Source of the DNA: Candidatus Parvarchaeota archaeon
Lineage (GTDB): Archaea > Nanobdellota > Nanobdellia > JAFCGN01
Length of the DNA stretch: 54,465 nt
Direction: 5' to 3'
Assembly: GCA_017608045.1 (NCBI GenBank)
Contig: JAFCGN010000003.1
Span: forward strand, 1 to 54,465
This document shows, piece by piece, positions 13,174 through 53,297 of the stretch. The notes under the pieces were generated by a model. The model worked only from the letters and a program-made list of their open reading frames with translations, ran no database searches and was not told the origin of the DNA. Made by a program: the position numbers and the translations under genes. The number at the start of each line of letters is the position of its first letter. Within the stretch, counting starts at the first letter, position 1.

Positions 13174-14049
13174 TTAAGCTAAGTAAAAAGATATGAAGCA
13201 TATTAACAACCAAAACAAAACCCCGCAAACAATGTATTTGTCAAACAGGATTAATTCCGTATTTCTTCCTGCTTTATGATTTGACAGAACTAAGTGCAAA
13301 TATCTTTGTAAAATAAAAACAACAATAGGGATTGTAAGCATCATTAAATTATTGCTTGTGCTTGCTAAAAACGTGTAAAAAGAATATGTTGAAAGAAGCA
13401 TTGCTGTTATAATTGTAATATAATTTTTGAGAAGGTCTTCAGTGTAAAAAGCATAAACTTTTTTATGTTTTTCAGGATTTTTTCCTAAAATTTTTTTATC
13501 ACTTAATCTTTTGCTCAATCCTAAAAATAATGCAAGCAAATACACCATAACTAAAAGCCACGGACTACTGCCAACATTAATCGCGTTCATCCCGCTTACA
13601 GTTCTTATAATAAAGTTTAATGCAATGAATTGCAAATCAATTAAAGGAACATTTTTAGCGAACAAAGAGTATGTTAAAGTGCTTAAAAACAATAATGTTG
13701 GGAATACAAAAAACAAATTATTTATGAAAAACGAAAAATAAATTGAAAGACTAAAAAAAATAATAACAAGGAGTTTAGCAAATTTTTTACTAATTTTCTT
13801 GCTTGCTAAAACCCTATGTTTTTTTTCAGGATGCTTTTTGTCTTTTTCATAATCTATTAAGTCATTAATTATGTAATTTGTTGAACTCATGAAACAAAGT
13901 GCAATAAAACCAATAAAACTAAATGAAAAACTCTTAAAATTGAAAAGATTTTTACTAAAAAAAATCGGAAGAAAAATAACTAAATTTTTATACCATTGCC
14001 TAATGCGCATTAAGTTTATTATGTTCTTTAATTTTTGAATTATTCTCAT
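13174..14049 (-). CDS. UbiA-family polyprenyl-phosphate phosphoribosyltransferase (DPPR synthase-like)
   Basis: 'LMRIRQWYKNLVIFLP', 'YIINDLIDYEKDKKHPEKKHR' and 'FLGLSKR' are typical of the Rv3806c-type subfamily. Confidence 0.85.
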   Translation of the reverse strand: MRIIQKLKNIINLMRIRQWYKNLVIFLPIFFSKNLFNFKSFSFSFIGFIALCFMSSTNYIINDLIDYEKDKKHPEKKHRVLASKKISKKFAKLLVIIFFSLSIYFSFFINNLFFVFPTLLFLSTLTYSLFAKNVPLIDLQFIALNFIIRTVSGMNAINVGSSPWLLVMVYLLALFLGLSKRLSDKKILGKNPEKHKKVYAFYTEDLLKNYITIITAMLLSTYSFYTFLASTSNNLMMLTIPIVVFILQRYLHLVLSNHKAGRNTELILFDKYIVCGVLFWLLICFISFYLA

Positions 14050-14134
14050 TTAAAATTAATATTTTTGTTTAATTTTTAAGTTTTGTGAGTTAAGCAATAA
14101 TTCTTATAAAGAGTAATTAAAGGATTATTATTTA

Positions 14135-14989
14135 ATGAAGGCAATAATTCCTGCTGCAGGCAAGGGGACGAGATTACTTCCAAATACACTTGGTGCTCCA
14201 AAAGAATTAATAACTTTTCTTGGCAAGCCTTCAATAGAGTGGGCAATTGATTACTTAAAAGAAAACAACATAAACGATATAACAATAATAACAGGCTATA
14301 AAAAGTCAGCTCTTTTTGATTATTTAGGTACTGGCAGTTTTTTTAATGTTAAAATTGATTATGCATTACAACATAATCCAAAAGGGTTGGGGCATGCAAT
14401 TCTTTGTGCTAAAAACAATATTTTAGAAGATGATTTCATTGTTTATTTAGGGGACACTATTATTGTTCCGAAAAACAATCCTTTTGGGAAATCGCATGAC
14501 TTAGAGGAACTTGTAAAATTGCATTTAGAAAAAAACGCGTTTGCAACAATGCTGCTTGAAGAAGTTTTAAATCCAGAAATATATGGTGTTGTGCGTTTTG
14601 ATAAAAAAAGCAAACTTATAACAGATATTTATGAAAAACCAAAAGATGAAAAAGTTAAGAAAAGGTTTAGATTAAAGAACGGTAAATACTTAGCAATTTC
14701 AGGAATTTATGTTTTTAACAAAGAAATTTTTGATTATCTTAAAAAATTGAAACCAGGATTAAATAATGAAATTCAATTAACAGACGCAATATTAAATGCA
14801 TTGAAAGATGAAAATCTTGTTTATGGAAGGATTTTAAATGGAATGAGAGTGGATATAGGAAACTTTAACTATTTAAAACATGAACAAGAAGTATATGGCA
14901 TGCTTAAAAATGAACAATTAGAAGCATGGATTAATGAGAGGGAAGCTCTTGGAAAAAAAATAAAGAGGGAAGTTTATAATGAAAAATAA
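14135..14989 (+). CDS. UTP/dTTP-glucose-1-phosphate nucleotidyltransferase (GalU/AglF/RmlA-like)
   Basis: 'AAGKGTRLLP...PKEL', 'PKGLGHAI', 'YEKP' and 'EIQLTDAI'. Confidence 0.9.
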   Translation: MKAIIPAAGKGTRLLPNTLGAPKELITFLGKPSIEWAIDYLKENNINDITIITGYKKSALFDYLGTGSFFNVKIDYALQHNPKGLGHAILCAKNNILEDDFIVYLGDTIIVPKNNPFGKSHDLEELVKLHLEKNAFATMLLEEVLNPEIYGVVRFDKKSKLITDIYEKPKDEKVKKRFRLKNGKYLAISGIYVFNKEIFDYLKKLKPGLNNEIQLTDAILNALKDENLVYGRILNGMRVDIGNFNYLKHEQEVYGMLKNEQLEAWINEREALGKKIKREVYNEK

Positions 14990-39987: not shown

Positions 39988-42972
39988 ATGAATTTAATTG
40001 GGGCATTGCTTCCATTTATAGGTTTAACAGGAGCTGTTTTAATAGTTGCTGCTATTATTAAGAGTTTTGGTTCTAATAGAAGTGAAGATAATAGTGACGG
40101 TGCAAATGTTGATTTAAGTGGTGTTGAAAATGCAATAAATAATGTTAATACCAGAATTGATAATATTGTTAATGAATTACAAACTAATAGAACTCAAATA
40201 GAGAACAATAATAATGAAATAATTGCTTCAAGAGATGCTGTTGTTCAAGAAGTGACTAATCTTGCTACAACAATGAATGCAAGATTTGATCAAGTTGATA
40301 CAGCAATAAATGATTTGAGAAATGACATAACCTCTCGTTTTAACAATATTGATAATAATATTGCAACTTTAAGCACTTCTATTAATGAAGTTAATACGCG
40401 TAGCAGAGCAATGAATCAGGTTATAAGAACTTTGCCGCGAAGATTTCATGAAGTTCATAGGCATATGCAGAGCAATTTAAGAAATCTGCGCCAACACATA
40501 ACTCAAACAAGTACAATTACTGATGATTTAATCACTCAACTTATCACAGATTTATACAATTCAATCATGAATAATGTTTATAATCCACTGACTACTCAAA
40601 TAAATGATTTTAGGAATGGTGTTGTTAATTTTTTAGGCCATAACATTATTCCTGCAATTACATCATTTTCTCAAAGTTTAACTCAAATTCTTACTGATTT
40701 AACGAATTTTAGCAACAGATTTAACAATTTCACTACAAATGATTTTCAAACACTTGTTAATACAGTCAATAACTTAAATTCTTTTGTTACATCTGATTTA
40801 AGTGAAGCAGTTGAAAGAAACAGAAGCATGGTTGGCGACGTGTATAATGAATTAATTAATGTTCAAACAAGTCTTTCTGAAAATATAAACAATGCATTGA
40901 GAGACATTCAATCAGAATTAAATGATTTAAGAACTAATGCGGGAGACGCAGAAACTCGTTTTGACAATATTGAGGATGCATTAAATAATATTAATGATGC
41001 AATAAATAATGTGTCTAATACTTTACAACCCCATATTAACAATGTTTCTAAAAATTTTGATGCTGTTAAAAAATCGCTTGGTAAATTAGAAAAAGAACAG
41101 AAAAATGCTAAAAAAGAGTTTGAAAAATTAAACAAATCATTTAAAACTTTTAAAACAAGTGAGTTTCCTAACGCAATTAATGATTTGAAAACAAACATTG
41201 CGCAACTTTCTGCTAAGATTGAACAAGCAATTAAAGATGGCAATAAGGACGTGATTAATGAATTAAAGACTGAAATAAGTGATGCTGAGAATAGGCTTAA
41301 ATCATTAATTAATAATCTGCCTAATGAAATTAAAGAGAGTTTTAATGATGAATTTGAAAAAATAGGAGCAGACTTAAAGGATCTTAAAAAAGGAGTTGAA
41401 GAAAATAAAAAACTAATTGAAAAACATGATAGAGAAATTAAAGATTTTTTGAAAGATATTTTGTCAAGTATTGCAAGTCTTGAAAAAACATTAAGTGGTT
41501 TATCTGAAGATTACAAAAAGCTTGTTGAAGATTACAAGAATGCTATGGAAAAACAAAACCAATTAGGAGAAGAAATTGTGAAATTGTTAAAGGGAATTGA
41601 TGCTAATAAGCTTAATGAGAATATAACAAAACTTGAAGAACTTATTAAACAATTAGAATCTCTTAAAGCTCAAGCGGAATCAGTTAAGAAATCAGAAAGC
41701 ACTGCTGAAGCCGGAGATGTTATTAATAATTATATAGATAACTCTACTAAGATTATTAATAATATTAATAATCAAATTATTGTTATTACTGAATTTTATT
41801 CAACCACAAGAGAGAAGATTCCAAAAATAATTGGTGGTTCAAAATTAACGCAAGAAGAAGAAAAAGAAGTTACGAACTTGGTGTCTCAACTTTTTACAGC
41901 ATTAAGTATAATGGATTCAATAACTGATGAAGTATTGCCTGAAGGTGCAGAATTTCTTATTAACATAAAAAAACTTCTTAAAACTTATTCCAAACAAATG
42001 AAGAAATTGCACGAAACTGCTGTGAATAATTTAAAAGAATATAAAAAAGAAAAATCCAAATCAAATTCTGAAGAAGCAAATAAACTTCATTATTTGTTTG
42101 ATTTTGATTTATTTAAACATGCATTAGACACTCTTGATAGCATGAATTCTAGATTGGACAAAATAAGAAAAATAGAAATAAGGATGGGTTCGCGACGACA
42201 AGTTGAGAGAACCGCTGAAAGAATGGAAGAAGGAAGAACAAGAACAGCGCTTTCAGAAGAAAGTGTTTTAGAAGAAAGTTATTCAATAAAAAAGATGTTC
42301 TACGAAATTGAAGAGAATGTTGTTGGAAGTTTTGAAAGAGTTGTTAGAATTTCTTCTGTTGAAAATTATATTGAGAACCTGCAAGAGTGGTTTTATTTAA
42401 CACAACAAGCGAGTTTTAATCTTAAGTATTTGGAGAGAAGATTAAAAGGAAGTCTTCTTCCCATTACTGAAAATGAGGTTGATTCTTTAAAAGATTTAAT
42501 AGATGAAGAAAAAAATAGATTAAGTAAATCAAAAAAAGATTTTGAAAAAATCACTGGTGAAAATAATCCTAATGAAGAAGAAATAAGTAATGCTATAAAC
42601 GCGCTTACAGAAACAATTGATTATAAAGATGAAGAAAAAACATTTAAGCATTTTGAAACAGTTTTAAAGGAAAACATAAATGAGAAAATAAGGGATTATG
42701 AGGTTTTCACAGAATTCATGACAACATACAAGGACTTGTTGGTTCGCTTGTTTAATTCTTTTGTTATTGATGTTCTTATAAAACACGGAAATAAGAATAA
42801 AGAAGATTATGTTAAATTTTATTTTAAAAAAGCGAGAAGAAGAGGGGATATTGAATCTTCTGACTTAAAAACTGTTTTCGGACACAAGAAATTAAATGTG
42901 TCGGGTGCAAGAATAAATTCTAGGAAATGGAAGAAGCTTACTAAATGGAGCAAAGTAAAAAAAGCAATTTAA
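39988..42972 (+). CDS. Giant (994 aa) N-terminally anchored coiled-coil protein
   Basis: Hydrophobic aa 1-24, then heptad/hendecad repeats (RFDQVDTAIND, RFNNIDNNIAT, RFDNIEDALNN), then K/E-rich helices. Confidence 0.85.
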   Translation: MNLIGALLPFIGLTGAVLIVAAIIKSFGSNRSEDNSDGANVDLSGVENAINNVNTRIDNIVNELQTNRTQIENNNNEIIASRDAVVQEVTNLATTMNARFDQVDTAINDLRNDITSRFNNIDNNIATLSTSINEVNTRSRAMNQVIRTLPRRFHEVHRHMQSNLRNLRQHITQTSTITDDLITQLITDLYNSIMNNVYNPLTTQINDFRNGVVNFLGHNIIPAITSFSQSLTQILTDLTNFSNRFNNFTTNDFQTLVNTVNNLNSFVTSDLSEAVERNRSMVGDVYNELINVQTSLSENINNALRDIQSELNDLRTNAGDAETRFDNIEDALNNINDAINNVSNTLQPHINNVSKNFDAVKKSLGKLEKEQKNAKKEFEKLNKSFKTFKTSEFPNAINDLKTNIAQLSAKIEQAIKDGNKDVINELKTEISDAENRLKSLINNLPNEIKESFNDEFEKIGADLKDLKKGVEENKKLIEKHDREIKDFLKDILSSIASLEKTLSGLSEDYKKLVEDYKNAMEKQNQLGEEIVKLLKGIDANKLNENITKLEELIKQLESLKAQAESVKKSESTAEAGDVINNYIDNSTKIINNINNQIIVITEFYSTTREKIPKIIGGSKLTQEEEKEVTNLVSQLFTALSIMDSITDEVLPEGAEFLINIKKLLKTYSKQMKKLHETAVNNLKEYKKEKSKSNSEEANKLHYLFDFDLFKHALDTLDSMNSRLDKIRKIEIRMGSRRQVERTAERMEEGRTRTALSEESVLEESYSIKKMFYEIEENVVGSFERVVRISSVENYIENLQEWFYLTQQASFNLKYLERRLKGSLLPITENEVDSLKDLIDEEKNRLSKSKKDFEKITGENNPNEEEISNAINALTETIDYKDEEKTFKHFETVLKENINEKIRDYEVFTEFMTTYKDLLVRLFNSFVIDVLIKHGNKNKEDYVKFYFKKARRRGDIESSDLKTVFGHKKLNVSGARINSRKWKKLTKWSKVKKAI

Positions 42973-43032
42973 AGAATAAATAATAATGAATAAACATAAA
43001 ATAAATAAATTATGTTTTTCTTTTGATTATCA

Positions 43033-45216
43033 ATGACAATATCAATTATTTCAGTAATTTCTGCAATTGGCTTAACAGCATTAGGAGGTGCTGGCTTATA
43101 CGCTGCTTATAAATGGGTTGTTAAACACCCTGCAGGAAAGAAAATACGAGTTAAAACAAGAAGAGCGAGCAAGCAGGAGAGAAAGAAAGCAAAGAAAATA
43201 GCTAAAAAAATTCTTAAAGGAAGTTGGAAACTTCTTTCTAGTACTGGCAGGGGAGTGTATTATGTTGCGCCAAGAATATGGCGTGGAACTAAAAAAAGTG
43301 CGAAAACAATAACAGGATCAAGCAAAAAAATTTTTAAAAAAAGTTATAAAACTCTTAAAAACATTTCTTCTTCACTCAAGAAAATCAAGTTCAATAAATT
43401 AAGAAAATTTGTTAAAAAAAAGCAATCAAAAGAAGCATTAGAAGAAACTCAAAAACTTGAAAAAGAAATTAATGAATTAAAAAAAGAAGTTGATGAAATA
43501 TTAGAAGAATTAAAAAATAAGCCTTTTGAAAAAAAAAGTGCAGAAGTAGAAAATATTTCTAATGAATTAGGAGGATTAAGCCGAGGAGTAAGTGCTATTG
43601 AAAACCAAGTAATGGGGAAAGAAAGTATTTCAGACGAGGAATCACAAGTATTATTAGAAGAAATTAAGAAAGTAGAAGAGAGTAAAGAAACATTTGAGAA
43701 GAATTTAGAGAAAGCAATAGAAAGAATAAATGAGTTAGATGAATTAGGAGTAGAATCAGAAGAAGAAAGAGAAATGGAAGAAGAGCAAGAAGGAGTAGGC
43801 AGGAAAACCGAGAGATTGTTAGGTTATTATGAGGGAAGAAGAGGAGAACTTGAAAAAACAAGTTTTGTCATAGAACCTGATGAGAGGATAAGAGATTATA
43901 TTTTAAGAGTGAAAAAAGATTTTGAAAAATTATTCTTTCCATTAATTTTTATTGACCCTTCTGATAATGAAAAAAAATTCAGGGAAGAAGAGTTCAGGTA
44001 CTCTGTTGAAGGATTCAATGCATTAAATGTTGATAATGAAGATTTTATTGAAATTGCTTCAGAATTAGCAACTTCTTTATTGTTTTCCATTATTGAATTA
44101 ATTTCTTCAGAAGAAATCATGAAAAGCAAAATAAAGGAATTGCAGGAGAACCTTGATAAGTTGAAAGAATTTGTTAATGAAAATGAGGATAAAGTTAATA
44201 ATAAAGAAAATGTTTTAAAACTTCTTCAACAATTAATTACTTCTTTAGAGCCTTATGCTAATACCTCGTTTAAAAAAATATACTTTGAAGGAGGAGAGAT
44301 TACCTTAGGAAATTATAAAAAACAATTACGCGATGTTGTAGAATTAATTTGTAATTATAAAAGTTCAGAAGAAACTTCAAGTAAGAATTATAAAGAGGAC
44401 ATAAAAAGTAGTTTAAAAAGAGTTTATAAACACTTTCTTAAAGTGCAAGAGGATTACTTAAAGTTAAAACATTGGGCTGAGAAGAATTTATCATGGTTTG
44501 AAACTCTTGCTAATTCCTTCAAAAATAATGCAGTATTCATGAGTGGTGAAAAAGAAATTAGTGAAAAAGAACCTAAAAAAGAAGCATCAGATAAAGTGAA
44601 GAAAGAAGTTTCAACTTTGATTGAGCAAATAATAACTCAACTTAATGAAATAAAGTTTTATGATGGAAGCGTTCAGGATTATCGTAAATTATTAGAACAT
44701 GTTAAAGAAGGCAGAGGAGGTATTACAGCGAATACTCTTGATGATGTAAAAAATAATATTATTAGACCCATTGATGTTTTAGGAGGATTTTATTATGGAT
44801 ATGATTTCAAAAGTCTTTTACGATTAAACATAAAAACCCTGCCTGAAAAATCAGAAGAGTATATTAAAGAATTCATTAATCAACTTCAAGAAAAAGTAAT
44901 TAAAGGAATGCTTAAGAAAGATGTTGAATTAATAACAGAAGTTATTACTAAAAATCCTTTAATTAATAAAAAAATCAAAAAATCTGTAAATGAATTGAAG
45001 GAAATTGCTTTAAATGCTTTAAAGGGTTATGAGAAGTACTTAAGTTCTTGTGATATTCCTTTATACAAAAAAAGAAGACTGATTTATCTTGATAATAAAA
45101 ATCTTTCTAAACTAATTGGTATTAATTATAAAAAGAAAAGTTTTTTTCCTAAAACACATAAAATATTAAGTGAATGGTTTAGGAAGGAAGCACAAGTTAA
45201 TAAAAAAAACACTTAA
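43033..45216 (+). CDS. 727-aa N-terminally anchored protein with basic region and acidic coiled coil
   Basis: Gly/Ala-rich hydrophobic N-terminus, K/R-rich aa ~28-135, then E-rich heptads. Confidence 0.85.
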   Translation: MTISIISVISAIGLTALGGAGLYAAYKWVVKHPAGKKIRVKTRRASKQERKKAKKIAKKILKGSWKLLSSTGRGVYYVAPRIWRGTKKSAKTITGSSKKIFKKSYKTLKNISSSLKKIKFNKLRKFVKKKQSKEALEETQKLEKEINELKKEVDEILEELKNKPFEKKSAEVENISNELGGLSRGVSAIENQVMGKESISDEESQVLLEEIKKVEESKETFEKNLEKAIERINELDELGVESEEEREMEEEQEGVGRKTERLLGYYEGRRGELEKTSFVIEPDERIRDYILRVKKDFEKLFFPLIFIDPSDNEKKFREEEFRYSVEGFNALNVDNEDFIEIASELATSLLFSIIELISSEEIMKSKIKELQENLDKLKEFVNENEDKVNNKENVLKLLQQLITSLEPYANTSFKKIYFEGGEITLGNYKKQLRDVVELICNYKSSEETSSKNYKEDIKSSLKRVYKHFLKVQEDYLKLKHWAEKNLSWFETLANSFKNNAVFMSGEKEISEKEPKKEASDKVKKEVSTLIEQIITQLNEIKFYDGSVQDYRKLLEHVKEGRGGITANTLDDVKNNIIRPIDVLGGFYYGYDFKSLLRLNIKTLPEKSEEYIKEFINQLQEKVIKGMLKKDVELITEVITKNPLINKKIKKSVNELKEIALNALKGYEKYLSSCDIPLYKKRRLIYLDNKNLSKLIGINYKKKSFFPKTHKILSEWFRKEAQVNKKNT

Positions 45217-45286
45217 TTTCCTTCAATTAATTAAAATTACTTTTTTTTAGTTAATTATTTAAGCAATAATTATTTATTTCTAAAAT

Positions 45287-45811
45287 ATGGCAGGACCATT
45301 AGAACTTGCAATACAAGGACTTAAAGAACTTGGTTTTTTTAATGTTCTCTTGCCATTTCTTCTTGTATTCACAGTCATTTATGGCATTCTTGAAAGAACA
45401 AAAGTGTTTGGAGACAAGAAACACGATATTAATGCAGTAGTAGCGTTCACCATAAGCATGATGGTTATTGGGACAACATGGGTTGTGGGAGCAATAACAA
45501 ATTTTTTACCCTATGTTGGAATGATTAGCATTGTTGTTGTAAGCTTGCTTTTACTTGCAGGAATGATGTTTTCAAATAATCTTGAAGGACTCTTTAATGA
45601 AAAATGGTTTCAAACAGGCGGTGTTATTGTTATTATTATTGCCATATCCTTAAGTTTAATGTATGTTTTTGGATTAGAATTAACAACAGGCGGGGGTTAT
45701 ATTTTAGGAATACCTGTTAATGATTTTGCTACAATAATGGGTTTAATCCTGTTTTTTGCACTTATTGTATGGATGGTAAGGCCTGAAAGTTCGAATGGAG
45801 GAAGCAAATAA
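45287..45811 (+). CDS. Small multi-TM membrane protein (paralogue 1)
   Basis: 'LPFLLVFTVIYGILERTKVFG...INAVVAF'. Confidence 0.8.
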   Translation: MAGPLELAIQGLKELGFFNVLLPFLLVFTVIYGILERTKVFGDKKHDINAVVAFTISMMVIGTTWVVGAITNFLPYVGMISIVVVSLLLLAGMMFSNNLEGLFNEKWFQTGGVIVIIIAISLSLMYVFGLELTTGGGYILGIPVNDFATIMGLILFFALIVWMVRPESSNGGSK

Positions 45812-46392
45812 TGAGTAGTGTCTCAGAATTTTTTAAATTAATGTTTGCTTCTGTAGGTGCATTAGCGCCTGCTGGAATAGACCCAACTCTTTTTTTTACA
45901 ACATTCTTTGTTGTTTTTGCAATAATTTTCACTGGTTTAAGCACGGTTAAAGTGTTTGGGAACGCAACTAATAACAATAAAATAAGAGCGATATTCGCTT
46001 TTGTTGCAGCATATTTCACAGCAACAAGCGCGTTCGCAACAGTTATGATAAGCAAACTTTTTCCAAATCTTGGAGTTGTTTTAATCAGTGTTATTGTAAT
46101 GCTTGTTGTAACTTCATTTGTTAGTGGTTCAGGAAAACCTGTTAGTGGAGGTTTTTTAAAAGTTATAATGCTCTTGCTTGTTGCATGGATTATTTGGAAT
46201 TCATGGAACAGTGCAACTTGGGAAGTATACGGGTATAAAACACAAGTTCAAGTTTCAATGCAAGATATAGCGGATATAGTGTTAGTCATAATTTTTATTA
46301 TTATTTTTCTTAAAGTGCTTGGTGTTGGCGGAGACAAGAGTGGAGGAAACTCTACTCTAAAAGAGTTCCTAGGAGATTTGCTGAAAAGTTAA
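45811..46392 (+). CDS. Small multi-TM membrane protein (paralogue 2)
   Basis: 'FFVVFAIIFTGLSTVKVFG...IRAIFAF...LFP'; 1-nt overlap with the upstream gene. Confidence 0.8.
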   Translation: MSSVSEFFKLMFASVGALAPAGIDPTLFFTTFFVVFAIIFTGLSTVKVFGNATNNNKIRAIFAFVAAYFTATSAFATVMISKLFPNLGVVLISVIVMLVVTSFVSGSGKPVSGGFLKVIMLLLVAWIIWNSWNSATWEVYGYKTQVQVSMQDIADIVLVIIFIIIFLKVLGVGGDKSGGNSTLKEFLGDLLKS

Positions 46393-46451
46393 TTAAAAAA
46401 GATTAAATACAAGGATTAAAAAATAAAAAATATAGAGGTGAAAAAAATAAA

Positions 46452-47015
46452 ATGGCAGAAGAAACATTCCTTCAAGCAGTAGGATTATTAGATTATCTTG
46501 GCTTTGAATATTTTTTAGTTCCCTTATTCATATTCACTCTTCTCTTTGCAATACTTCAAAAATACAAGATAATAAGTGAAAAAATGGATGCAAACGCAGT
46601 TATTGCTTTTGTTTTAGCAATGCTCACAGCAATGTTTCCTGATTTAAGCACGTTTATTTACAGGTTATTGCCTTTATTCGTTGTTTTTTTGATAGTAGGT
46701 TTTTCAGTAATGCTTTTTTTTATGTTTTTTGGATTAAAACAAAACGAAGTTGTTGATTTTATAAAAAAACCAGGCATAGTTATCATCATTTTTGCTATAA
46801 GCATTATAATATTCGCAAACGTGTTTAGTTCTCAATTTGGTTCAGCATTCACGCCCGGAGAATTTGAACCAACAAACGAGTCCTCATACACTGGAACAGG
46901 AACACAAGTATTTGCAAGAATTTTAGCCCACCCAAAAGTTCTCGGCACAATAATTCTTTTAGTACTTCTTGCTTTAAGCACGTATTTAGTGGCGCACAGC
47001 ACATTAGAAAACTAA
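46452..47015 (+). CDS. Small multi-TM membrane protein (paralogue 3)
   Basis: 'VPLFIFTLLFAILQKYKII...ANAVIAF...LLP'. Confidence 0.8.
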   Translation: MAEETFLQAVGLLDYLGFEYFLVPLFIFTLLFAILQKYKIISEKMDANAVIAFVLAMLTAMFPDLSTFIYRLLPLFVVFLIVGFSVMLFFMFFGLKQNEVVDFIKKPGIVIIIFAISIIIFANVFSSQFGSAFTPGEFEPTNESSYTGTGTQVFARILAHPKVLGTIILLVLLALSTYLVAHSTLEN

Positions 47016-47026
47016 CTCTTTCGTTA

Positions 47027-47704
47027 TCATTTACTTTTTTTACCCTTCTCAACTAAATTGCGGAGTTGTTGAATATTATCACTAAGCGCAGGAATTAATT
47101 TACTCATTGCTTTCTCAACAGCTTGAATTTCTATTTTTGAATCTGTTATTGCCTTTCCATATTCCTCTACTTTCTGCATTGTTTGAGCTTGAATCATATC
47201 CAATCTTGTTTTTAAATCCTTTACTTTATCATTTAAACTATTCACCATGCTTTCTGTTTTATTTCTCCAAACATTAAATCTTTCCATTTCAGATTCTACT
47301 TCCTTCCACCTCTCTCTTATTATTTCTTCAAGTATTCTTTCTATCTCATTCACATCTAATTTTTTCCCACCAACATCACTTACGGGTGCAGTACTTGTTG
47401 GCGCTGTAATTGTTTCAACAGGTGCTTCAGTATTTATTGGACTTGTTGGCGCTGTAGGTGCTTGCTCTATAGGACTTAAATCATTAATGCTTGTTATTTG
47501 TGAACGCAAGTCAAGTTGAGCAAGAGCATCTCTTATTTGTGAAAAAGAATAACCCTGTGCTTTTAATTGATTAATTATTTGTTCATTATTCATTCCACTA
47601 CTTCTTAGAGCTGCAGCTTCTTTTAAAGGAAGCGCGCCTGGAGGAGGCGGACTAACACCACTTATTGCTGCAACTTTCTCCTTTTTTCTTCCAAACAAAC
47701 CCAT
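47027..47704 (-). CDS. Coiled-coil protein with small N-terminal helical bundle and P/T-rich linker
   Basis: MGLFGRKK, SPPPPG, 'QIINQLKAQGYSFSQIRDAL' and C-terminal heptads. Confidence 0.8.
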   Translation of the reverse strand: MGLFGRKKEKVAAISGVSPPPPGALPLKEAAALRSSGMNNEQIINQLKAQGYSFSQIRDALAQLDLRSQITSINDLSPIEQAPTAPTSPINTEAPVETITAPTSTAPVSDVGGKKLDVNEIERILEEIIRERWKEVESEMERFNVWRNKTESMVNSLNDKVKDLKTRLDMIQAQTMQKVEEYGKAITDSKIEIQAVEKAMSKLIPALSDNIQQLRNLVEKGKKSK

Positions 47705-47743
47705 TTTTCATCCCTTTTTTAAACTATAACTCATTAAGTATTA

Positions 47744-48145
47744 TTAATTTTTCTTTTTACGCACTTTTTTTCTTTCAAAAAGTTTTTCAGCATCCGCTAA
47801 TGTTAAAAATCTTGTTGGATCAAATAAATCAACATACTTTTCTAAAACTTTTAAATCACTGATTTTCGCACTTGTTTCCGCTTCTTTAATTAAATGTCTT
47901 GTTGTTTCTCGAATATCCTTATAATTCTTATTTAATTCTTCAATTTGAATAGAATTCTCTGTAATAAGCTCCTTCAACTCATTTGTTCTTCTTAAAAGGT
48001 TTTGATCTGTTGCCTTTAACTTTTCTCTAAGTTGTTCAAACTTTTCTTCTAATAATCTAACCCTATTACTTAAATCACTAATTTTATCGCTCGCAAATTT
48101 TAAAAATTCTTCACTAATAGGTTGTTGAGTTGGCATTTTCATCAC
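47744..48145 (-). CDS. Small coiled-coil protein (start probably 48142 or 48136)
   Basis: Continuous heptads; C-terminus 'KVLEKYVDLFDPTRFLT'. Confidence 0.8.
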   Translation of the reverse strand: MMKMPTQQPISEEFLKFASDKISDLSNRVRLLEEKFEQLREKLKATDQNLLRRTNELKELITENSIQIEELNKNYKDIRETTRHLIKEAETSAKISDLKVLEKYVDLFDPTRFLTLADAEKLFERKKVRKKKN

Positions 48146-48211
48146 ACAAAATTTCTTTTTTCCTCTTTCTTAACTAAACTATAACAATTTTCTCTTATAT
48201 ATTTATTTATA

Positions 48212-48360
48212 AGTAAGAACCTCCAGCGGGTTCACTAATCACAAAGTGATTGTGCCCAAGTTACCCCAGTAACTTAGGGCTTACTAACTCCCTTATTATA
48301 TGTTTATGTTCTTTGGGGTAACTTACACCTTTCTTACAAGAAAGGAGCAGAGTCAGAATC
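48212..48360. other. GC-enriched structured intergenic element (perfect four-way junction plus alternative long-range pairing); candidate ncRNA/regulatory leader
   Basis: Helices AGTAA/TTACT, GAACC/GGTTC, AC-AATCAC/GTGATT-GT, GCCCAAGTTAC/GTAACTT-GGGC and CCTTTCT/AGAAAGG; AAGTTACCCCA (48258-48268) is complementary to TGGGGTAACTT (48314-48324). Confidence 0.65.
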
Positions 48361-48422
48361 ATTTAAATTTTTGTAATATAATATTTAAATGTGCAATTTT
48401 TTAATTAGTTATAGGTGCAGAG

Positions 48423-50711
48423 ATGGTTGAGAAAAAAAAATTATATTCTTATGAGATAGAGATAGAAGGTAATACAAGAAATCTTGTTATAAATTGTGTG
48501 GGAAGTCTTTATTACCCAAGCATTGAAGATAATGAGTTTTACATGAGCATGGTAATAGGCTATCTCATAGAAACTGGTTTTGTGAATAACATAACATTAG
48601 CAGGGGAAAGAAACTACATTTATACAGAAGAGCAAGCGCAGATGCTTTATGAAATTGCTCAAGCATACACTCATTTAATAAGACAAGAGAAAATAATAAG
48701 TATTGCAAAATTAGGTCCAACAGATTCTGAAAAAAAATTTTTGCCTGAAAGAATTAATACAATGCGTTCCATTGTTTTAGAACTTTTGAGAAGCGATCCA
48801 GTGAGCGCATATGTTAAAGCAATAAGAACATTGCGCGAGCAGAAAGTGAAAATGGAGGCGCTTCCTTTAAAACAAAGATTTATTTTCAAAACTTATGTAA
48901 ATGCTTTAGAAACAGTAATAACTTTACTAGAAAAAACAAGACTAATAAAAAAAGCAAAACCTTTTATTGCAGGACACAAAATAGGGGACAGGGCAATTTA
49001 TAGAGAATTGTTTGAACCTATAATAAAACCAAACTTTATGCTTACACGCCTCATGGCTGAAGCACCACTGAAAGGAGAGGAAGTTGATTCATACAATATT
49101 GGCAAATTCGAGAAAAGCACTGTAGTCATTTACAAACTTCCAAATACTGTTCGGTTAAAATATCATATAAGTCCGCCAGAGTTTAATCTAACTGAAGAAG
49201 AAAACACTCTTTTAACTGATGCGCAAAAAGTATTAAGCAGGTACAAACCAAAAGGCGCGGAATTTGTTGATCCTTCTCGCATGAGAATGGTTTTTTATAA
49301 CATTGCTAAAGACCTTCTTGATGAACTTGCTGTAAGTAAAGGATTGCATATGAAATACAATGAAATTGAAGAGCTTTCAAGAATTCTTGTAAGGCTCACA
49401 GTCGGTTTTGGTTTAATTGAGGTTCTGCTTGAAGACCCTTACATAGAAGACATTTACATTAATGCACCAATTGGACAAACACCTATTTTTTTGAAACACG
49501 CGAAATACGGGGAATGCGAAACAAATATTATTCCAAACATACGAGAGGCGGAAGCATGGGCTTCAAGATTTAGAATGATAAGTCAAAGACCTCTTGATGA
49601 AGCAAATCCTGTTTTAGACACAGAATTATTTTTACCTGCTGCTAGAACAAGAGTTGCAATAATCCAAAGACCCTTGAGTCCGCAAGGTTATTCTTTTGTA
49701 TATAGAAAACACAAACCCACACCATTCACGTTTCCAATGTATATTAATTACAAGTTTTTATCTCCATTAGCAGCAGGATTGCTTTGGTTTTTAACAGATG
49801 GTGCAAGAACAATGATGATTGCAGGCACAAGAGGCACTGGAAAATCAAGTTTGCTTGGATGCATAATAGGAAATATAATGAGAAAATACAGGATAATCAC
49901 TGTTGAAGACACTCTTGAACTGCCCGTGGAGTATTATAGAAAACTTGGTTTTAACATAATACCAATGAAGGTAAGAAGTGCTATTTTAGGAGAGAAATCA
50001 GAACTTAGTGCAGCAGAAGGAGTAAGAACTTCTTTGCGTTTAGGGGATAGTGCGTTAATTGTTGGTGAAGTAAGAAGTAAAGAAGCTCTCGCTCTTTACG
50101 AAGCAATGCGTGTAGGCGCATTAGCTAATGTTGTTGCAGGCACGATTCATGGTGATAGCCCGTACGGTGTTTTTGACAGAGTTGTAAATGATTTAGGAGT
50201 GCCAAGAACAAGTTTTAAAGCAACAGATATAATAATGGTTGCAAATAAAATAAGAGGCGCAGGTCAATTAACAGAAAATAGAAGATTAACTACAATTGCA
50301 GAAGTAAGAAAGCATTGGGAAGAAGACCCTCTTAAAGAACAAGGATTTGTGCATCTCATGGAATATGACTCAAAGAAAGACATGATTATGCCAACAAGTG
50401 CTCTTCTTGATGGGGATTCTGAGGTTGTAAAAAGCATTGCAGGAAAAGTTAGGGATTGGGTTGGAAATTGGGACAGGGTTTGGGATAACATTGTTTTAAG
50501 AGGGAAGATAGCAAAACTAATGGCTGATTATGCTAAGAAACCTGGAAACTCATGGATACAAGAAGCAGATTTTGTTGTGGTTGGAAATGATAATTTTCAC
50601 AAAATATTTGGAGAATTAAAAGAAGAAAGTGGGTATCCAGATAGCAAAGATGTTTTGTTTCAGTTTGAGAATTGGCTTAAAACACAGATAAGAATGAGAA
50701 AGAAAAGGTGA
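48423..50711 (+). CDS. Type IV pilus/type II-IV secretion ATPase (VirB11/TadA/ArlI family)
   Basis: Walker A 'AGTRGTGKSS', Asp box 'ITVEDTLEL', Walker B 'LIVGEVR' and His box 'GTIHG'. Confidence 0.93.
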   Translation: MVEKKKLYSYEIEIEGNTRNLVINCVGSLYYPSIEDNEFYMSMVIGYLIETGFVNNITLAGERNYIYTEEQAQMLYEIAQAYTHLIRQEKIISIAKLGPTDSEKKFLPERINTMRSIVLELLRSDPVSAYVKAIRTLREQKVKMEALPLKQRFIFKTYVNALETVITLLEKTRLIKKAKPFIAGHKIGDRAIYRELFEPIIKPNFMLTRLMAEAPLKGEEVDSYNIGKFEKSTVVIYKLPNTVRLKYHISPPEFNLTEEENTLLTDAQKVLSRYKPKGAEFVDPSRMRMVFYNIAKDLLDELAVSKGLHMKYNEIEELSRILVRLTVGFGLIEVLLEDPYIEDIYINAPIGQTPIFLKHAKYGECETNIIPNIREAEAWASRFRMISQRPLDEANPVLDTELFLPAARTRVAIIQRPLSPQGYSFVYRKHKPTPFTFPMYINYKFLSPLAAGLLWFLTDGARTMMIAGTRGTGKSSLLGCIIGNIMRKYRIITVEDTLELPVEYYRKLGFNIIPMKVRSAILGEKSELSAAEGVRTSLRLGDSALIVGEVRSKEALALYEAMRVGALANVVAGTIHGDSPYGVFDRVVNDLGVPRTSFKATDIIMVANKIRGAGQLTENRRLTTIAEVRKHWEEDPLKEQGFVHLMEYDSKKDMIMPTSALLDGDSEVVKSIAGKVRDWVGNWDRVWDNIVLRGKIAKLMADYAKKPGNSWIQEADFVVVGNDNFHKIFGELKEESGYPDSKDVLFQFENWLKTQIRMRKKR

Positions 50712-52837
50712 TTTTTTTGGCAAAAAAGAAAACCAATGATAAGAATAAACAAGATTATGCAGAAAATGATAATTTGCCTAATTATGAAGGGGTTACTGAT
50801 GAATTAGTTGAAAAATTATTTAAAAAATATGGAGCAAATAAGCCAACAGAAGAAGAAATGAAGATGTCTGCTGAAACATACATTAGGAGTAGAGAATACA
50901 AAATTTTTACAAAAAGAGAAGAGAATAAGTGGGTAAGAAGGTATGAAAAATGGTGCGCTAAAGCACAGAAAATTTTACCAGTAAGTGTTACTGAAGAAGA
51001 AAAAAAAATTGTTAATAAGGCAATTGAAATAAGTGATTTAAAAGTTACTCCAGAAGGTGTTGCAAGTTTTAGTTTTATTGTTTTTGCTATTTTCTTAGTT
51101 TTTTCTTTGATAACTGCACTAATCTCGCCTTTATTTATGATTTTATTTGCTGTTATAGGATATGCTGTATTCAATTATTTAAAAAAATATCCTAAAAAAG
51201 CTGTTGAAAATGCGCAAGTAAAGGCAAGCGGTGAAACAATTCTTGCTGTTTTATATCTTGTTATTTACATGAGGCACACGCCAAATATGGAGGCTGCGGT
51301 TAAATTTGCAAGCGATAATCTTACAGGTCCTCTTGCTAATAGTTTCAGAAAGCTTTTATGGGATGTTCAATCGAGAAAATATAAAAATATTAGCGAAGCA
51401 TTAGATGCTTACACAAAAGAATGGGGGGAGTTTAATAAACCATTTACTGATGCCATATACTTGATTGAATCTTCAATGTATCAGACAAAAGAAGAGCACA
51501 GAAAGGATTTACTTAATCGCGCTCTTGATAGGATTCTTGACGGCACATTTGAAAGAATGAGCACGTACGCGCATTCATTGAAAACCCCTGTTGACACTAT
51601 TTATACAATGGGTATTATCCTGCCAGTATTAGGATTAGTTATGTTTCCAATGCTTGCTGCTTTTATGAGTGACATGGTTAAACCGCAAACCATTGCTATT
51701 TTTTATAATATCATGCTCCCCATTTTTGTTTTATTTTTTGAAAAATTAATTTTTATGAAAAGACCTGTTGGATTCCCAACTCCTGACATAAGTAATCATC
51801 CTGATATGCCTAAAAAAGGATGTTTTAAAATGGGGGGTAAAAATGTAAAAGCATGGCCTATAAGTTTGTTAATCCTTTTAATTGGCGTAATACCATTTAT
51901 TATGTATTTAACAAATGCACCATCTCAACCATCTGAAAAAGACATATTCATTAGTTTACTCCCTATTTTTGGAATTGCTTTTAGCATATGGTTTTATACA
52001 AAAAACATTAGTGCTCCAAGACTCAAAATTTTGAAAAAAGTAACAAGTGTGGAAAAAGAATTAGCAGATGCGCTTTTTCAATTAGGGATGAGAATTGGAG
52101 AAGGCAATCCACCGGAAATTGCAGTTCAAAAAGTTGCTGCAGTGATGAGGGAAAGTGAAACAGCAATGTTTTTTAAGAAAATCACAGTGAATATGAAAAG
52201 ATTAGGATATAGTTTTGAAAGAGCAATATTTGATGAAAATTATGGAGCAATACTTTTTTACCCTTCTCCAATGCTTAAAAGCGTGATGGAAGTTTTAGTA
52301 AGTTCAAGCAATAAAAGTCTTGAAGTTGCCGCAGTTAGCATGATAAATATTGCAAGATATTTGCAAAACATTGGAAGAATAAATGACAAAGTTGTGGATA
52401 TACTAAGTGATACTGTTTCTGGAATTAAATTTCAGGCAAGCGTTATTACGCCTATTGTTAGTGGAGTTGTTGTTGGATTAACTTCTTTAATAATAATTAT
52501 TTTATCCTTGCTTTCTTCCAAAATGGAAGAACTTAGTGCATTAAGCGGAGGAGATTTAGGTCCCTGGGCATTAGGCATGTTTAGTATGAGTGGTTCAGTG
52601 CCACTTTATTTGTTTCAGCCAATAGTTGGCATTTATTTAATAGAGATTGTGCTCTTAATTGGTTCCCTTGATGCTGATATTGAAACAAATGGTCATCCCT
52701 TATATAGAAACAATATAATTTCTAAATTAATCCTTCCCGCAGTTATTATCTATGCAATTGTTGGTGTTGCTTTAACAGTTATTTTTGGAGGATTAGGAAA
52801 AGCTGCTTTAGCAATAGGAGGCTCTTTTGGTGTTTAA
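50708..52837 (+). CDS. Type IV pilus membrane platform protein (TadC/ArlJ-like, two T2SS-F-like domains); likely TTG start 50717
   Basis: Multi-TM protein with 'PNMEAAVKFA', 'ELADALFQLG...GNPPE'; overlaps the ATPase stop; SD AGGTGA. Confidence 0.85.
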   Translation: MIFLAKKKTNDKNKQDYAENDNLPNYEGVTDELVEKLFKKYGANKPTEEEMKMSAETYIRSREYKIFTKREENKWVRRYEKWCAKAQKILPVSVTEEEKKIVNKAIEISDLKVTPEGVASFSFIVFAIFLVFSLITALISPLFMILFAVIGYAVFNYLKKYPKKAVENAQVKASGETILAVLYLVIYMRHTPNMEAAVKFASDNLTGPLANSFRKLLWDVQSRKYKNISEALDAYTKEWGEFNKPFTDAIYLIESSMYQTKEEHRKDLLNRALDRILDGTFERMSTYAHSLKTPVDTIYTMGIILPVLGLVMFPMLAAFMSDMVKPQTIAIFYNIMLPIFVLFFEKLIFMKRPVGFPTPDISNHPDMPKKGCFKMGGKNVKAWPISLLILLIGVIPFIMYLTNAPSQPSEKDIFISLLPIFGIAFSIWFYTKNISAPRLKILKKVTSVEKELADALFQLGMRIGEGNPPEIAVQKVAAVMRESETAMFFKKITVNMKRLGYSFERAIFDENYGAILFYPSPMLKSVMEVLVSSSNKSLEVAAVSMINIARYLQNIGRINDKVVDILSDTVSGIKFQASVITPIVSGVVVGLTSLIIIILSLLSSKMEELSALSGGDLGPWALGMFSMSGSVPLYLFQPIVGIYLIEIVLLIGSLDADIETNGHPLYRNNIISKLILPAVIIYAIVGVALTVIFGGLGKAALAIGGSFGV

Positions 52838-53297
52838 AAAAATGAATAAAATGTTAATTAGTTTAACTGCAAGGTCTCAAATAAACGTTGATTTGGTTGT
52901 GATAATTATGAGTATAGTAATTTTAGCCATGTCCATTGCTGTTGTTCTTTTTATTGCAGGGCCTTCTTTGAAAGATAAAGGCGGGTGCAATAATAATTGC
53001 ATATGTGAAGATAGTTTGGTTGATCCTTCTTTAAAAGGCACAGAAAATGACAGGCATGAAACAAAATATAATTGTTTCCCCCCTTTTTCAAATGATTGTT
53101 GCAAAGACGATGATGAAAATGTTTTTGATTGTGTTGATATTAATAAGATATCCCCAATGGATTATGATCCTGCGTGTTTTGATACAGTAACAATTTTTGA
53201 TAATGACGGCGTGTGCAGTTATTTTGAACCTTGTGATTCAATTGATTGTTCAAATAAGGACAACAAAGGCGCAAGTAGGTGCTATCCAACAGATTAA
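52827..53297 (+). CDS. Pilin-like protein with class III-like signal and 12-Cys acidic head
   Basis: 'ARS|QINVD' followed by a hydrophobic helix; 12 Cys in the C-terminal ~100 aa. Confidence 0.65.
   Translation: MVFKKMNKMLISLTARSQINVDLVVIIMSIVILAMSIAVVLFIAGPSLKDKGGCNNNCICEDSLVDPSLKGTENDRHETKYNCFPPFSNDCCKDDDENVFDCVDINKISPMDYDPACFDTVTIFDNDGVCSYFEPCDSIDCSNKDNKGASRCYPTD

Follow-up and report, generated by a model that had tools for sequence, protein, structure and literature searches.

The element described here occupies positions 48212-48360 of the 54,465-nucleotide (nt) stretch of DNA given above (the window, meaning that whole stretch), where it sits in a 277-nt spacer that separates two divergent genes. 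The window is AT-rich (GC about 32%) and its source is a Woesearchaeota/Nanoarchaeota (DPANN) genome: the nearest public contigs carrying the protein encoded downstream of the element are all labelled Woesearchaeota/Nanoarchaeota, and an archaeal signal recognition particle (SRP) RNA is present on one related contig from the same population. An initial annotation had read the element as a cloverleaf with a mutually exclusive second fold, and had proposed a switch RNA controlling pilus expression, a new non-coding RNA or ribozyme, or a palindromic mobile remnant. "Pilus or archaellum-type operon" is a fair name for the downstream genes, though only the ATPase has a family match. The gene pair and the parts of the spacer are as follows; loci compared with the window are given L numbers.

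47744-48145, minus strand: coiled-coil protein of 133 amino acids (aa), left neighbour of the spacer
48146-48211: AT-rich spacer by the minus-strand gene, with TATA-like TTATATAT at 48195-48202; outside the repeat and unchanged in L050
48212-48233, plus strand: left family module (A)GTAAGAACC-TCCAGCG-GGTTC, comprising the 5′ arm, the loop and most of the 3′ arm of the GTAAGAACC..GGTTCTTAC hairpin
48234-48280, plus strand: 47-nt insertion between GGTTC and TTAC of the family hairpin, made up of the hairpins AATCAC-AAA-GTGATT and GCCC-AAGTTAC-CCCA-GTAACTT-A-GGGC
48281-48292, plus strand: TTAC, with which the family hairpin ends and the junction closes against 48212-48216, then the family word TAACTCCC
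48293-48307, plus strand: AT-rich TATA-like spacer TTATTATATGTTTAT, matching TTATAATAT / TTATTATAT of other copies
48308-48327, plus strand: "head" module GTTCTTTGGGGTAACTTACA, which holds TGGGGTAACTT, the 3′ partner of the 11-nt complement, and whose first 9 nt, GTTCTTTGG, are the conserved single-stranded head of a cross-phylum motif
48326-48345: 20-mer CACCTTTCTTACAAGAAAGG, exact in 33 metagenome loci
48328-48345, plus strand: hairpin B, CCTTTCTT-ACAA-GAAAGG
48346-48360, plus strand: tail AGCAGAGTCAGAATC, a variant of the family tail GGGGCAGA(A/G)TCA(G/A)AAC
48361-48422, plus strand: ATPase-proximal spacer with a T5 run, TAATATAATATTTAAAT and GGTG ahead of the ATG; outside the repeat
48423-50711, plus strand: T2SSE/FlaI-type ATPase of 762 aa (PF00437, E = 4.9e-18)
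3′ of the ATPase gene: polytopic membrane protein of 709 aa

Most of what had been said about the shape of the element was borne out. Bases 48212-48285 (74 nt) do fold into a tRNA-sized four-way junction, for which the minimum free energy (MFE) structure and the centroid coincide at -26.7 kcal/mol, and none of 200 dinucleotide-shuffled controls folded as well (z = -4.17). The minus strand of the junction folds nearly as well (-26.0 kcal/mol, z = -2.85) and the whole 149-nt element is less exceptional than the junction (z = -2.7); as the coordinates were picked by eye, these z-scores are somewhat inflated through selection. The junction had been described as free of unpaired bases, which is not so for the MFE structure, where three are left over (A48234, C48235 and T48253), but a fully paired version is possible through A48234-T48253 and C48235-G48252 with T48236 bulged. 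The proposed second fold also held up: AAGTTACCCCA (48258-48268) and TGGGGTAACTT (48314-48324) are complementary at 11 of 11 positions, a perfect inverted repeat of at least 11 nt occurs in 4 of 1000 shuffles, and the fold forced to hold the 11-bp helix has the same predicted energy as the MFE fold containing the cloverleaf (-41.4 kcal/mol). Direct reading confirmed that the element ends in a direct repeat (AGTAAGAACC versus AGTCAGAATC, 8 of 10 positions), and TATA-like stretches are indeed present on both sides. The element is GC-richer (0.38-0.39) than the adjoining spacer (0.21-0.28), as had been noted, but merely equal to the neighbouring coding DNA. Four different palindromes lie within it. 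ARAGORN found no tRNA in the window or in the loci that carry related clusters, nor did the Rfam tRNA model, and Rfam as a whole gave no match at gathering score for the window and 21 related loci and only noise at E values up to 10, in agreement with the earlier statement that the element fits no recognised tRNA, SRP, RNase P or riboswitch pattern. A split or intron-containing tRNA was likewise rejected; ARAGORN calls none, and the T-arm and CCA-like words fail at the T-loop positions.

Taken by themselves, these properties could describe an RNA switch that acts in cis from the 5′ leader of either the ATPase operon or its divergent neighbour, with the cloverleaf and the 11-bp helix as its exclusive states. 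Both folds have equal predicted energy, the 11-nt complement is rare by chance, the junction is stable, and the element is positioned between two divergent promoters. Comparison of the locus among relatives and sister strains makes such a switch, and with it the suggested control of pilus expression, highly improbable. Indeed, the pilus-type operon shows no conservation of the element, as a leader or otherwise: neither blastn nor nhmmer found it in 48 related loci (L001-L048, 359 kb) of other Woesearchaeota, whose ATPases are mostly 46-70% identical to that of the window. The closest of these relatives, at 50-70% ATPase identity, retain the divergent coiled-coil gene, with a spacer of only about 75-100 nt that has no similarity to the element. 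In L052, a 69%-identical relative, the equivalent spacer measures 310 nt and is unrelated; this spacer (L052:2690-3001) is coding-like in composition, and may contain a small open reading frame (ORF) for a hydrophobic peptide in place of the repeat.

Three contigs carry an ATPase of the same 90%-identity cluster (99% identical to that of the window), and the queried protein is the translation product in each case. Four positions distinguish L049 from the window, all of them inside 48286-48360; one, a G>A change in TGGGGTAACTT (GGGG>GGAG), breaks the 11-nt complement with no compensating change. In L050, which comes from a hydrothermal-vent metagenome, the AT-rich stretches next to the two genes are nearly those of the window, but the mosaic that they enclose is a different one. 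It comprises the plain hairpin AGTAAGAACC-TAC-GGTTCTTACT, several small hairpins besides, and a 76-nt unit in three tandem copies, each made up of an AT-rich stretch and GTTCTTTGGGGCAACTTACACCTTTCTTACAAGAAAGGGGCAGAATCA(A/G)AAC. The 47-nt insertion is absent from L050. By contrast, the proximal spacer at 48361-48422 is the same in the window, L049 and L050, bar one base right before the start codon. This comparison shows that the locus has been rearranged between strains by tandem duplication, insertion and module exchange. The ATPase gene has its strain-invariant proximal TATA and GGTG on the downstream side of the element, with the T5 run in between, so that the element is probably outside the mRNA leader. 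A switch is also hard to reconcile with the presence of the same cloverleaf sequence at an unrelated locus (sequencing run X2, below), or with modules that occur sense or antisense beside unrelated genes at no fixed orientation or position. The proposal of a new non-coding RNA or ribozyme is likewise not supported, given an element that is not conserved at its locus, that is rearranged between strains, and whose modules stand beside unrelated genes.

The modules of the element recur at many other places. A metagenome scan with the 20-mer CACCTTTCTTACAAGAAAGG gave 33 loci, six of which are contigs from the sample of L050 with similarly low GC (0.28-0.33) and, where tested, similar read depth; a further locus, L072, comes from the companion sample Ga0190314, and its flanks match those of L056. 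The Woesearchaeal clusters share the hairpin GTAAGAACC-loop-GGTTCTTAC, the words TAACTCCC and GTTCTTTG(G/A)GGCAA, the module TCAGAACC-TACAT-GTTCCGATACCTCCAGCAACCA(A)TTAA(A/G)AAC, and hairpin B followed by the family tail. For example, the GTAAGAACC hairpin is uninterrupted in L083, as GTAAGAACCTCCAGCGGGTTCTTAC, and has a TAC loop in L050/L065, L056, L066 and L085, and GGTTCTTACTAACTCCC, that is TTAC plus the family word, is found again in L056, L065, L066, L083 and L085. Module number and order differ among the seven clusters, which extend to at least six other intergenic regions of the same population. Their neighbours, from ORFs read by eye, are presumably aIF2-alpha and L44e, dUTPase, TFE, SMC and CDC48, and FtsZ. 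These unrelated genes would be of the everyday housekeeping sort, and the clusters are sense to the downstream gene at some loci and antisense at others. The family thus occupies many intergenic regions of this Woesearchaeote and is absent from the other Woesearchaeota sampled.

Read depth gives the same picture. At the ATPase locus in run X1, positions 48305-48358 are covered at a depth of 990-1640, as compared to 92-101 in the single-copy flanks, depth is 0 over 48224-48304, and the assembly ends at both edges of the element. At the L066 locus in the same run the modules reach 250-1480 against flanks of 100 and 59, and the assembly breaks there too. At least four distinct left flanks join the GTAAGAACC module at L066, among them that of the ATPase locus, whose loose end is ATAACAATTTTCTCTTATATATTTATTTAT in the spacer 48146-48211. 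The modules are therefore multi-copy, at about 10-17 copies per genome equivalent (10-17 times flank depth in the source metagenome), a number compatible with a single cluster in the 54-kb window and a genome of about 1 Mb.

Seen from the opposite strand, several of the modules resemble CRISPR repeats, for example GTTCTGATTCTGCCCCTTTCTTGTAAGAAAG, since their reverse complements start with GTT, end in GAAAG or GAAC and hold a small hairpin inside, and in L050 three units follow one another at regular intervals. An array of CRISPR-like type, decayed or miniature, is nonetheless extremely improbable. The "spacers" of L050 are 97-100% identical, which marks them as tandem duplications, the other clusters are irregularly spaced with modules unequal in length and sequence, and the clusters are dispersed over many loci. 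Furthermore, a family scan of ten neighbouring proteins (39988-53294) gave no Cas match. Two other readings of hairpin B were rejected as well. Shine-Dalgarno or anti-Shine-Dalgarno mimicry does not suit its inconsistent orientation to genes, and an intrinsic terminator, suggested by a reverse strand that reads as a hairpin plus CCAAAGAACTTTT, is positioned suitably with respect to gene ends at about half of the loci only.

The cloverleaf itself can be traced to the construction of the repeat. L083 holds the uninterrupted hairpin GTAAGAACC-TCCAGCG-GGTTCTTAC, and the window holds the same hairpin plus the 47 nt at 48234-48280. Because this insertion consists of two hairpins, the four-way junction amounts to the old stem, its own loop hairpin and the two inserted hairpins; the tRNA-sized cloverleaf is thereby shown to be a by-product of insertion into the terminal hairpin of the family. 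The larger inserted hairpin carries AAGTTACCCCA, the exact reverse complement of the head-module family word TGGGGTAACTT, and also repeats GTAACTTA directly. The mutually exclusive second fold exists because of this inverted duplication of a family word, and no design as a switch has to be assumed. Three sequences carry the cloverleaf (the window, L049 and a contig from run X2); it does not vary among them, and no covariation is available for the junction.

The low-depth run X2 shows that this insertion is not confined to the ATPase locus, as the orthologue of L066 in that run also has TCCAGCGGGTTCACTAATCACAAAGTGATTG, whereas run X1 has the plain TAC hairpin at both loci. From the states of the two loci in the two runs, copies within a strain are more alike than orthologues, which is the pattern expected of gene conversion or of recent re-insertion of repeats. 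In run X2 the Logan contig ends in CTGTCTCTTATACACATCT right after 48280; we take this sequence to be the Nextera transposase adapter, of which those contigs would presumably retain remnants.

Because these palindromes with a head are extragenic, mosaic, strain-variable, multi-copy and associated with assembly breaks, and because paired changes keep their complementarity, gene orientation is a matter of indifference to them and one copy is tolerated in an intron-like insert, the element is probably one cluster of lineage-specific short hairpin-forming interspersed repeats, a mosaic of modules of about 10-50 nt. It would be akin to repetitive extragenic palindromic (REP) sequences and bacterial interspersed mosaic elements (BIMEs), or to miniature transposable elements with inverted repeats (MITEs) and palindrome-associated transposable elements (PATEs). 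The third suggestion of the initial annotation, a palindromic mobile remnant, was essentially right in this respect. The modules would act as non-autonomous selfish DNA of one of these types, spreading or being homogenised between intergenic sites via single-stranded hairpin intermediates and a transposase acting in trans, and/or by gene conversion and template switching. If they affected the flanking pilus-type operon at all, the modules would do so incidentally, by placing the divergent promoters further apart and by supplying extra TATA-like and oligo-T stretches.

The family appears to be a new one of a known element type, and its membership in any one named class is not established. REPs and BIMEs, as defined previously (PMC3733652, PMC2817692), share with it the short imperfect palindromes, the conserved single-stranded head beside a stem and the extragenic location (hairpin B; the GTAAGAACC..GGTTCTTAC hairpin), all copies lying between genes except one in the intervening sequence of a tRNA gene. 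They also share mosaic clusters of several module types whose number and arrangement vary between strains, breaks in assembly, and complementary changes in stems. However, AAAAGTTCTTTGGCCCACCTTTCTTACAAGAAAGGTGGG and the window element lack both tags of REPs, GTAG and CGTC (PMC3733652), on either strand, the head being AAAGTTCTTTGG. REPs typically exceed 100 copies per genome, as compared to 10-17 times flank depth for the archaeal modules and 30-45 times for a 40-nt motif in groundwater (below). The orientation of modules within a cluster is uniform, unlike the alternating REPs of BIMEs, and the family resides in a DPANN archaeon. A REP family is usually confined to one species, whereas a 29-nt core is common here to the archaeon and to bacteria. 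Finally, no REP-associated tyrosine transposase (RAYT, of the HUH Y1 type) was found in the locus sequence, where a Y1 probe gave no phmmer hit in about 350 kb, the window itself being about 5% of the genome.

Similarly, the elements resemble MITEs in being small (<500 bp), non-coding, multi-copy, intergenic, structured and lineage-restricted, and a Woesearchaeal genome is among the most MITE-dense archaeal genomes in a published census, at 105 per Mb (PMC11602168). Unlike MITEs, they have no terminal inverted repeats, the ends being direct, with (A)GTAAGAACC on the left and ATCAGAAC(C) or GGGGCAG on the right. No target-site duplication is recognisable, the flanks before the left end having no common motif and no close empty site having been found; no parent insertion sequence (IS) was identified, and the composition is modular and variable rather than a fixed unit. 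PATEs of the IS200/IS605 group are matched by a hairpin near each end, found for the 47-nt insertion as well as for the L056-type basic unit, by the lack of inverted terminal repeats and of a recognisable target duplication, by nested and serial insertions, and by the prominence of TTAC, which is seen both at the insertion point (GGTTC^TTAC) and within the hairpin-B loop. In contrast to such elements, no TnpA or TnpB gene lies near any copy, the two end hairpins differ in sequence, and no common sequence precedes the left ends, where a fixed target would be expected. IS608 inserts 3′ of TTAC; the 47-nt insertion instead lies 5′ of TTAC on the top strand. As for tRNA-like RNAs, riboswitches and ribozymes, a 74-nt four-way junction of tRNA size with a competing helix of equal predicted energy is reminiscent of them, but no tRNA or Rfam model matches, the shape is not conserved at the locus, and insertion explains it. 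Integron attC sites were also considered and rejected on direct reading, as the R′/R″ cores GTTRRRY / RYYYAAC do not fit GTTCTTT / AAAGAAC, and DNA-invertase or Xer sites bear only loose resemblances.

Several observations weigh against an origin as interspersed repeats. In addition to the uniform module orientation, no transposase, terminal inverted repeats or target-site duplication were identified, of which the negative result with the Y1 probe counts only weakly. A copy number of about 10-17 is low for classical REPs, metagenome depth may count copies that reside in other genomes, and the 54-kb window contains no further copy beyond its single cluster. The cloverleaf shows marked stability (z = -4.2) and has the same sequence at two loci within one strain, for which selection could be responsible in addition to gene conversion. 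In addition, the AT-rich TATA-like stretch before the hairpin-B unit and the oligo-T after it would fit small independent transcription units.

The 20-mer is not confined to the Woesearchaeote. Among the non-Woesearchaeal loci, 22 have GTTCTTTGG ahead of the 20-mer at a distance of 2-3 nt, or for a few of them of up to about 11 nt, giving a common unit of about 40 nt, AAAAGTTCTTTGGCC-CACCTTTCTTACAAGAAAGGTG-GG, within which the 29-nt core (9-nt head and 20-mer) is identical between archaeon and bacteria. The 20-mer is fixed by the search, and the two base pairs just outside it are free to vary. These pairs covary (CG 8 / AU 4 / GC 4 and CG 7 / AU 4 / UG 4 / UA 3): 92.5% of cells are paired, and the observed covariation was reached in 0 of 500 shuffles. 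In a groundwater run the unit has a depth of 250-343 against 7.7 in its flanks (30-45 times), and several different flanks join it. One host is clearly bacterial, as the adjacent RsmH is 70% identical to an entry from Candidatus Omnitrophota and 66-67% identical to Aminicenantes. Orientation to neighbouring genes is mixed among the loci with the core motif. Overall, the unit is near-identical in a DPANN archaeon, in a second lineage with a multiply interrupted tRNA gene, probably archaeal, and in several bacterial lineages.

On the GC-rich (about 0.6) bacterial contigs L057, L071, L074, L076, L077 and L081 the motif forms the 3′ part of a composite of about 150 nt. Upstream in the composite is a long T-rich/A-rich hairpin with a covarying base (GCGAC/GTCGC, GCCGC/GCGGC, GCACC/GGTGC), accompanied by a second covarying stem, GGGATAAT..TTATCCC or GGGGAGTAT..ATACGCCCC, and downstream is a conserved TTTCAATA..TCCTAT; the composite has no Rfam match. 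On two contigs it lies between genes that, read by eye, we take to be obg and yhbY. L062 and L079 carry the unit in antisense within a tRNA-Met(CAT) gene, where it sits in a D-loop intervening sequence of 87 nt; the gene is arranged as follows.

L062:972-1215, plus strand (also in L079): tRNA-Met(CAT) gene with three intervening sequences
988-1074 (87 nt): intervening sequence 1, in the D-loop, with the GTTCTTTGG/hairpin-B motif in antisense
1095-1138: intervening sequence 2, at the canonical 37/38 position
1162-1202: intervening sequence 3, in the T-loop, carrying a TTTTTCTCTTTGCAAAAGAGAAA hairpin

ARAGORN and Rfam both miss this interrupted gene, but once the three pieces are cut out by eye ARAGORN calls a normal 72-nt tRNA-Met. 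The intervening sequences could be either spliced bulge-helix-bulge introns or disruptive repeat insertions.

In L053, a minus-strand array (13842-14558) comprises at least eight tandem copies of the 51-nt unit AGAACCCTTAACAAAAGTTCTTTGGCCACTAACCTCCTCCTCTTCCCCGAG. This unit and the Woesearchaeal mosaic have three words in common (AGAACC, GTTCTTTGG and ACTAAC(C)TCC); hairpin B closes the array, throughout which one reading frame is open, encoding VLWPLTSSSSPREPLTK repeats. A viral or plasmid origin of the motif was rejected: hairpin B has no match in IMG/VR, and the phage collection gave nothing and the plasmid collection a single weak hit. A looser pattern found three hits in IMG/VR, which lack the hairpin and are attributable to chance, and the GTAAGAACC hairpin has no match in IMG/VR. 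A literature search by sequence returned unrelated primer hits only.

The most serious rival to a repeat family is a set of RNA genes. The modules might be small independent RNA genes, with the TATA stretch (e.g. CTTTATTTTAATAT) as promoter and a start near hairpin B, producing guide- or sponge-like RNAs in which a 5′ hairpin "handle" CACCUUUCUUACAAGAAAGGGG is followed by GCAG, a variable 3′ tail and an oligo-T end; the cloverleaf would be a second such RNA. In keeping with this idea, a TATA-like stretch lies directly upstream of GTTCTTTGGGG in all copies, runs of T5 or longer follow downstream in the window, L066, L083 and L085, and in L050 the promoter-like stretch has been duplicated along with the hairpin, both being parts of the 76-nt tandem unit. 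Likewise, hairpin B is invariant and the sequence 3′ of it variable, U-G wobbles at the stem base occur on the forward strand only (in four bacterial copies), and independence from the orientation of neighbouring genes is what autonomous units would display. Yet we consider RNA genes unlikely. Rfam has no match for them, none of the 33 loci has an associated gene for a nuclease or an RNA-binding protein as its neighbour, and no promoter can be recognised at a set distance from the bacterial copies. The seven Woesearchaeal clusters neither favour one strand consistently nor show a consistent excess of folding (z from -0.35 to -5.5), and neutral insertion better explains a copy that is antisense in the intervening sequence of a tRNA gene.

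The same clusters could also be viewed as double-stranded DNA, the AGAACC/GGTTCT words and the palindromes being protein-binding sites such as transcription-factor operators, nucleoid or insulator sites, or sites like archaeal origin recognition boxes (ORBs). These words do recur in the clusters with irregular spacing and in both orientations, the window palindromes lie between divergent promoters, and CCTCCAGCGGGTTC may bear a loose resemblance to archaeal ORB cores. The clusters adjoin at least one gene start in seven of seven cases, which is not unusual when about 0.75 is expected per site. We judge binding sites to be quite improbable overall: the four different palindromes of the window element would need several binders, at least seven loci are too many for replication origins (for which reason ORB boxes were set aside), and the core is common to bacteria and archaea, which would not share such a regulator. 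Moreover, covariation at the stem base keeps complementarity and not sequence, which points to a folded single strand or to a copying mechanism.

Returning to the reading as interspersed repeats, the core lends itself to an extension that we offer tentatively, as a minority possibility. The unit AAAGTTCTTTGG plus CACCTTTCTTACAAGAAAGGTG may mark an undescribed repeat family whose sharing implies a horizontally transferred enzyme that recognises the hairpin, the Woesearchaeal mosaics, cloverleaf included, being among its products. Candidates for such an enzyme would be a new transposase of the HUH type, or else a protein, RNA-guided or RNA-binding, for which the hairpin serves as a handle.

The surroundings of the gene pair contain several further features. 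Just upstream of the divergent pair, on the plus strand, are three adjacent small membrane-protein genes (45287-47015; 174, 193 and 187 aa) without Pfam match, of which at least the first and third products start alike and whose order is kept in L049 and L052; they may be pilin-like or accessory parts of the same apparatus. Further upstream (39988-45216, plus strand) are genes for two very large coiled-coil proteins of 994 and 727 aa, with weak generic matches only (ATG17-like, Baculo_PEP_C). Three long homologues of the ATPase (P0041, P0093 and P0101; 1092-1281 aa) contain inteins (PF14890, plus PF14528 in two of them), and the copy in the window (48423-50711) has none.

These results remove an attractive but wrong lead, in that the cloverleaf and the "switch" helix are by-products of repeat construction and not a regulator of the pilus operon. 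They document a REP/BIME-like mosaic repeat in a DPANN archaeon that varies between close strains and explains why assemblies break there. The unusual point is the 29-nt core, which is identical in archaeon and bacteria and is present in high copy with a covarying stem in bacteria. If it is true that one enzyme family recognises this core across domains, the family would provide a tractable case of cross-domain spread of a non-autonomous element, and the core could mark DNA exchange between DPANN archaea and bacteria of shared habitats.

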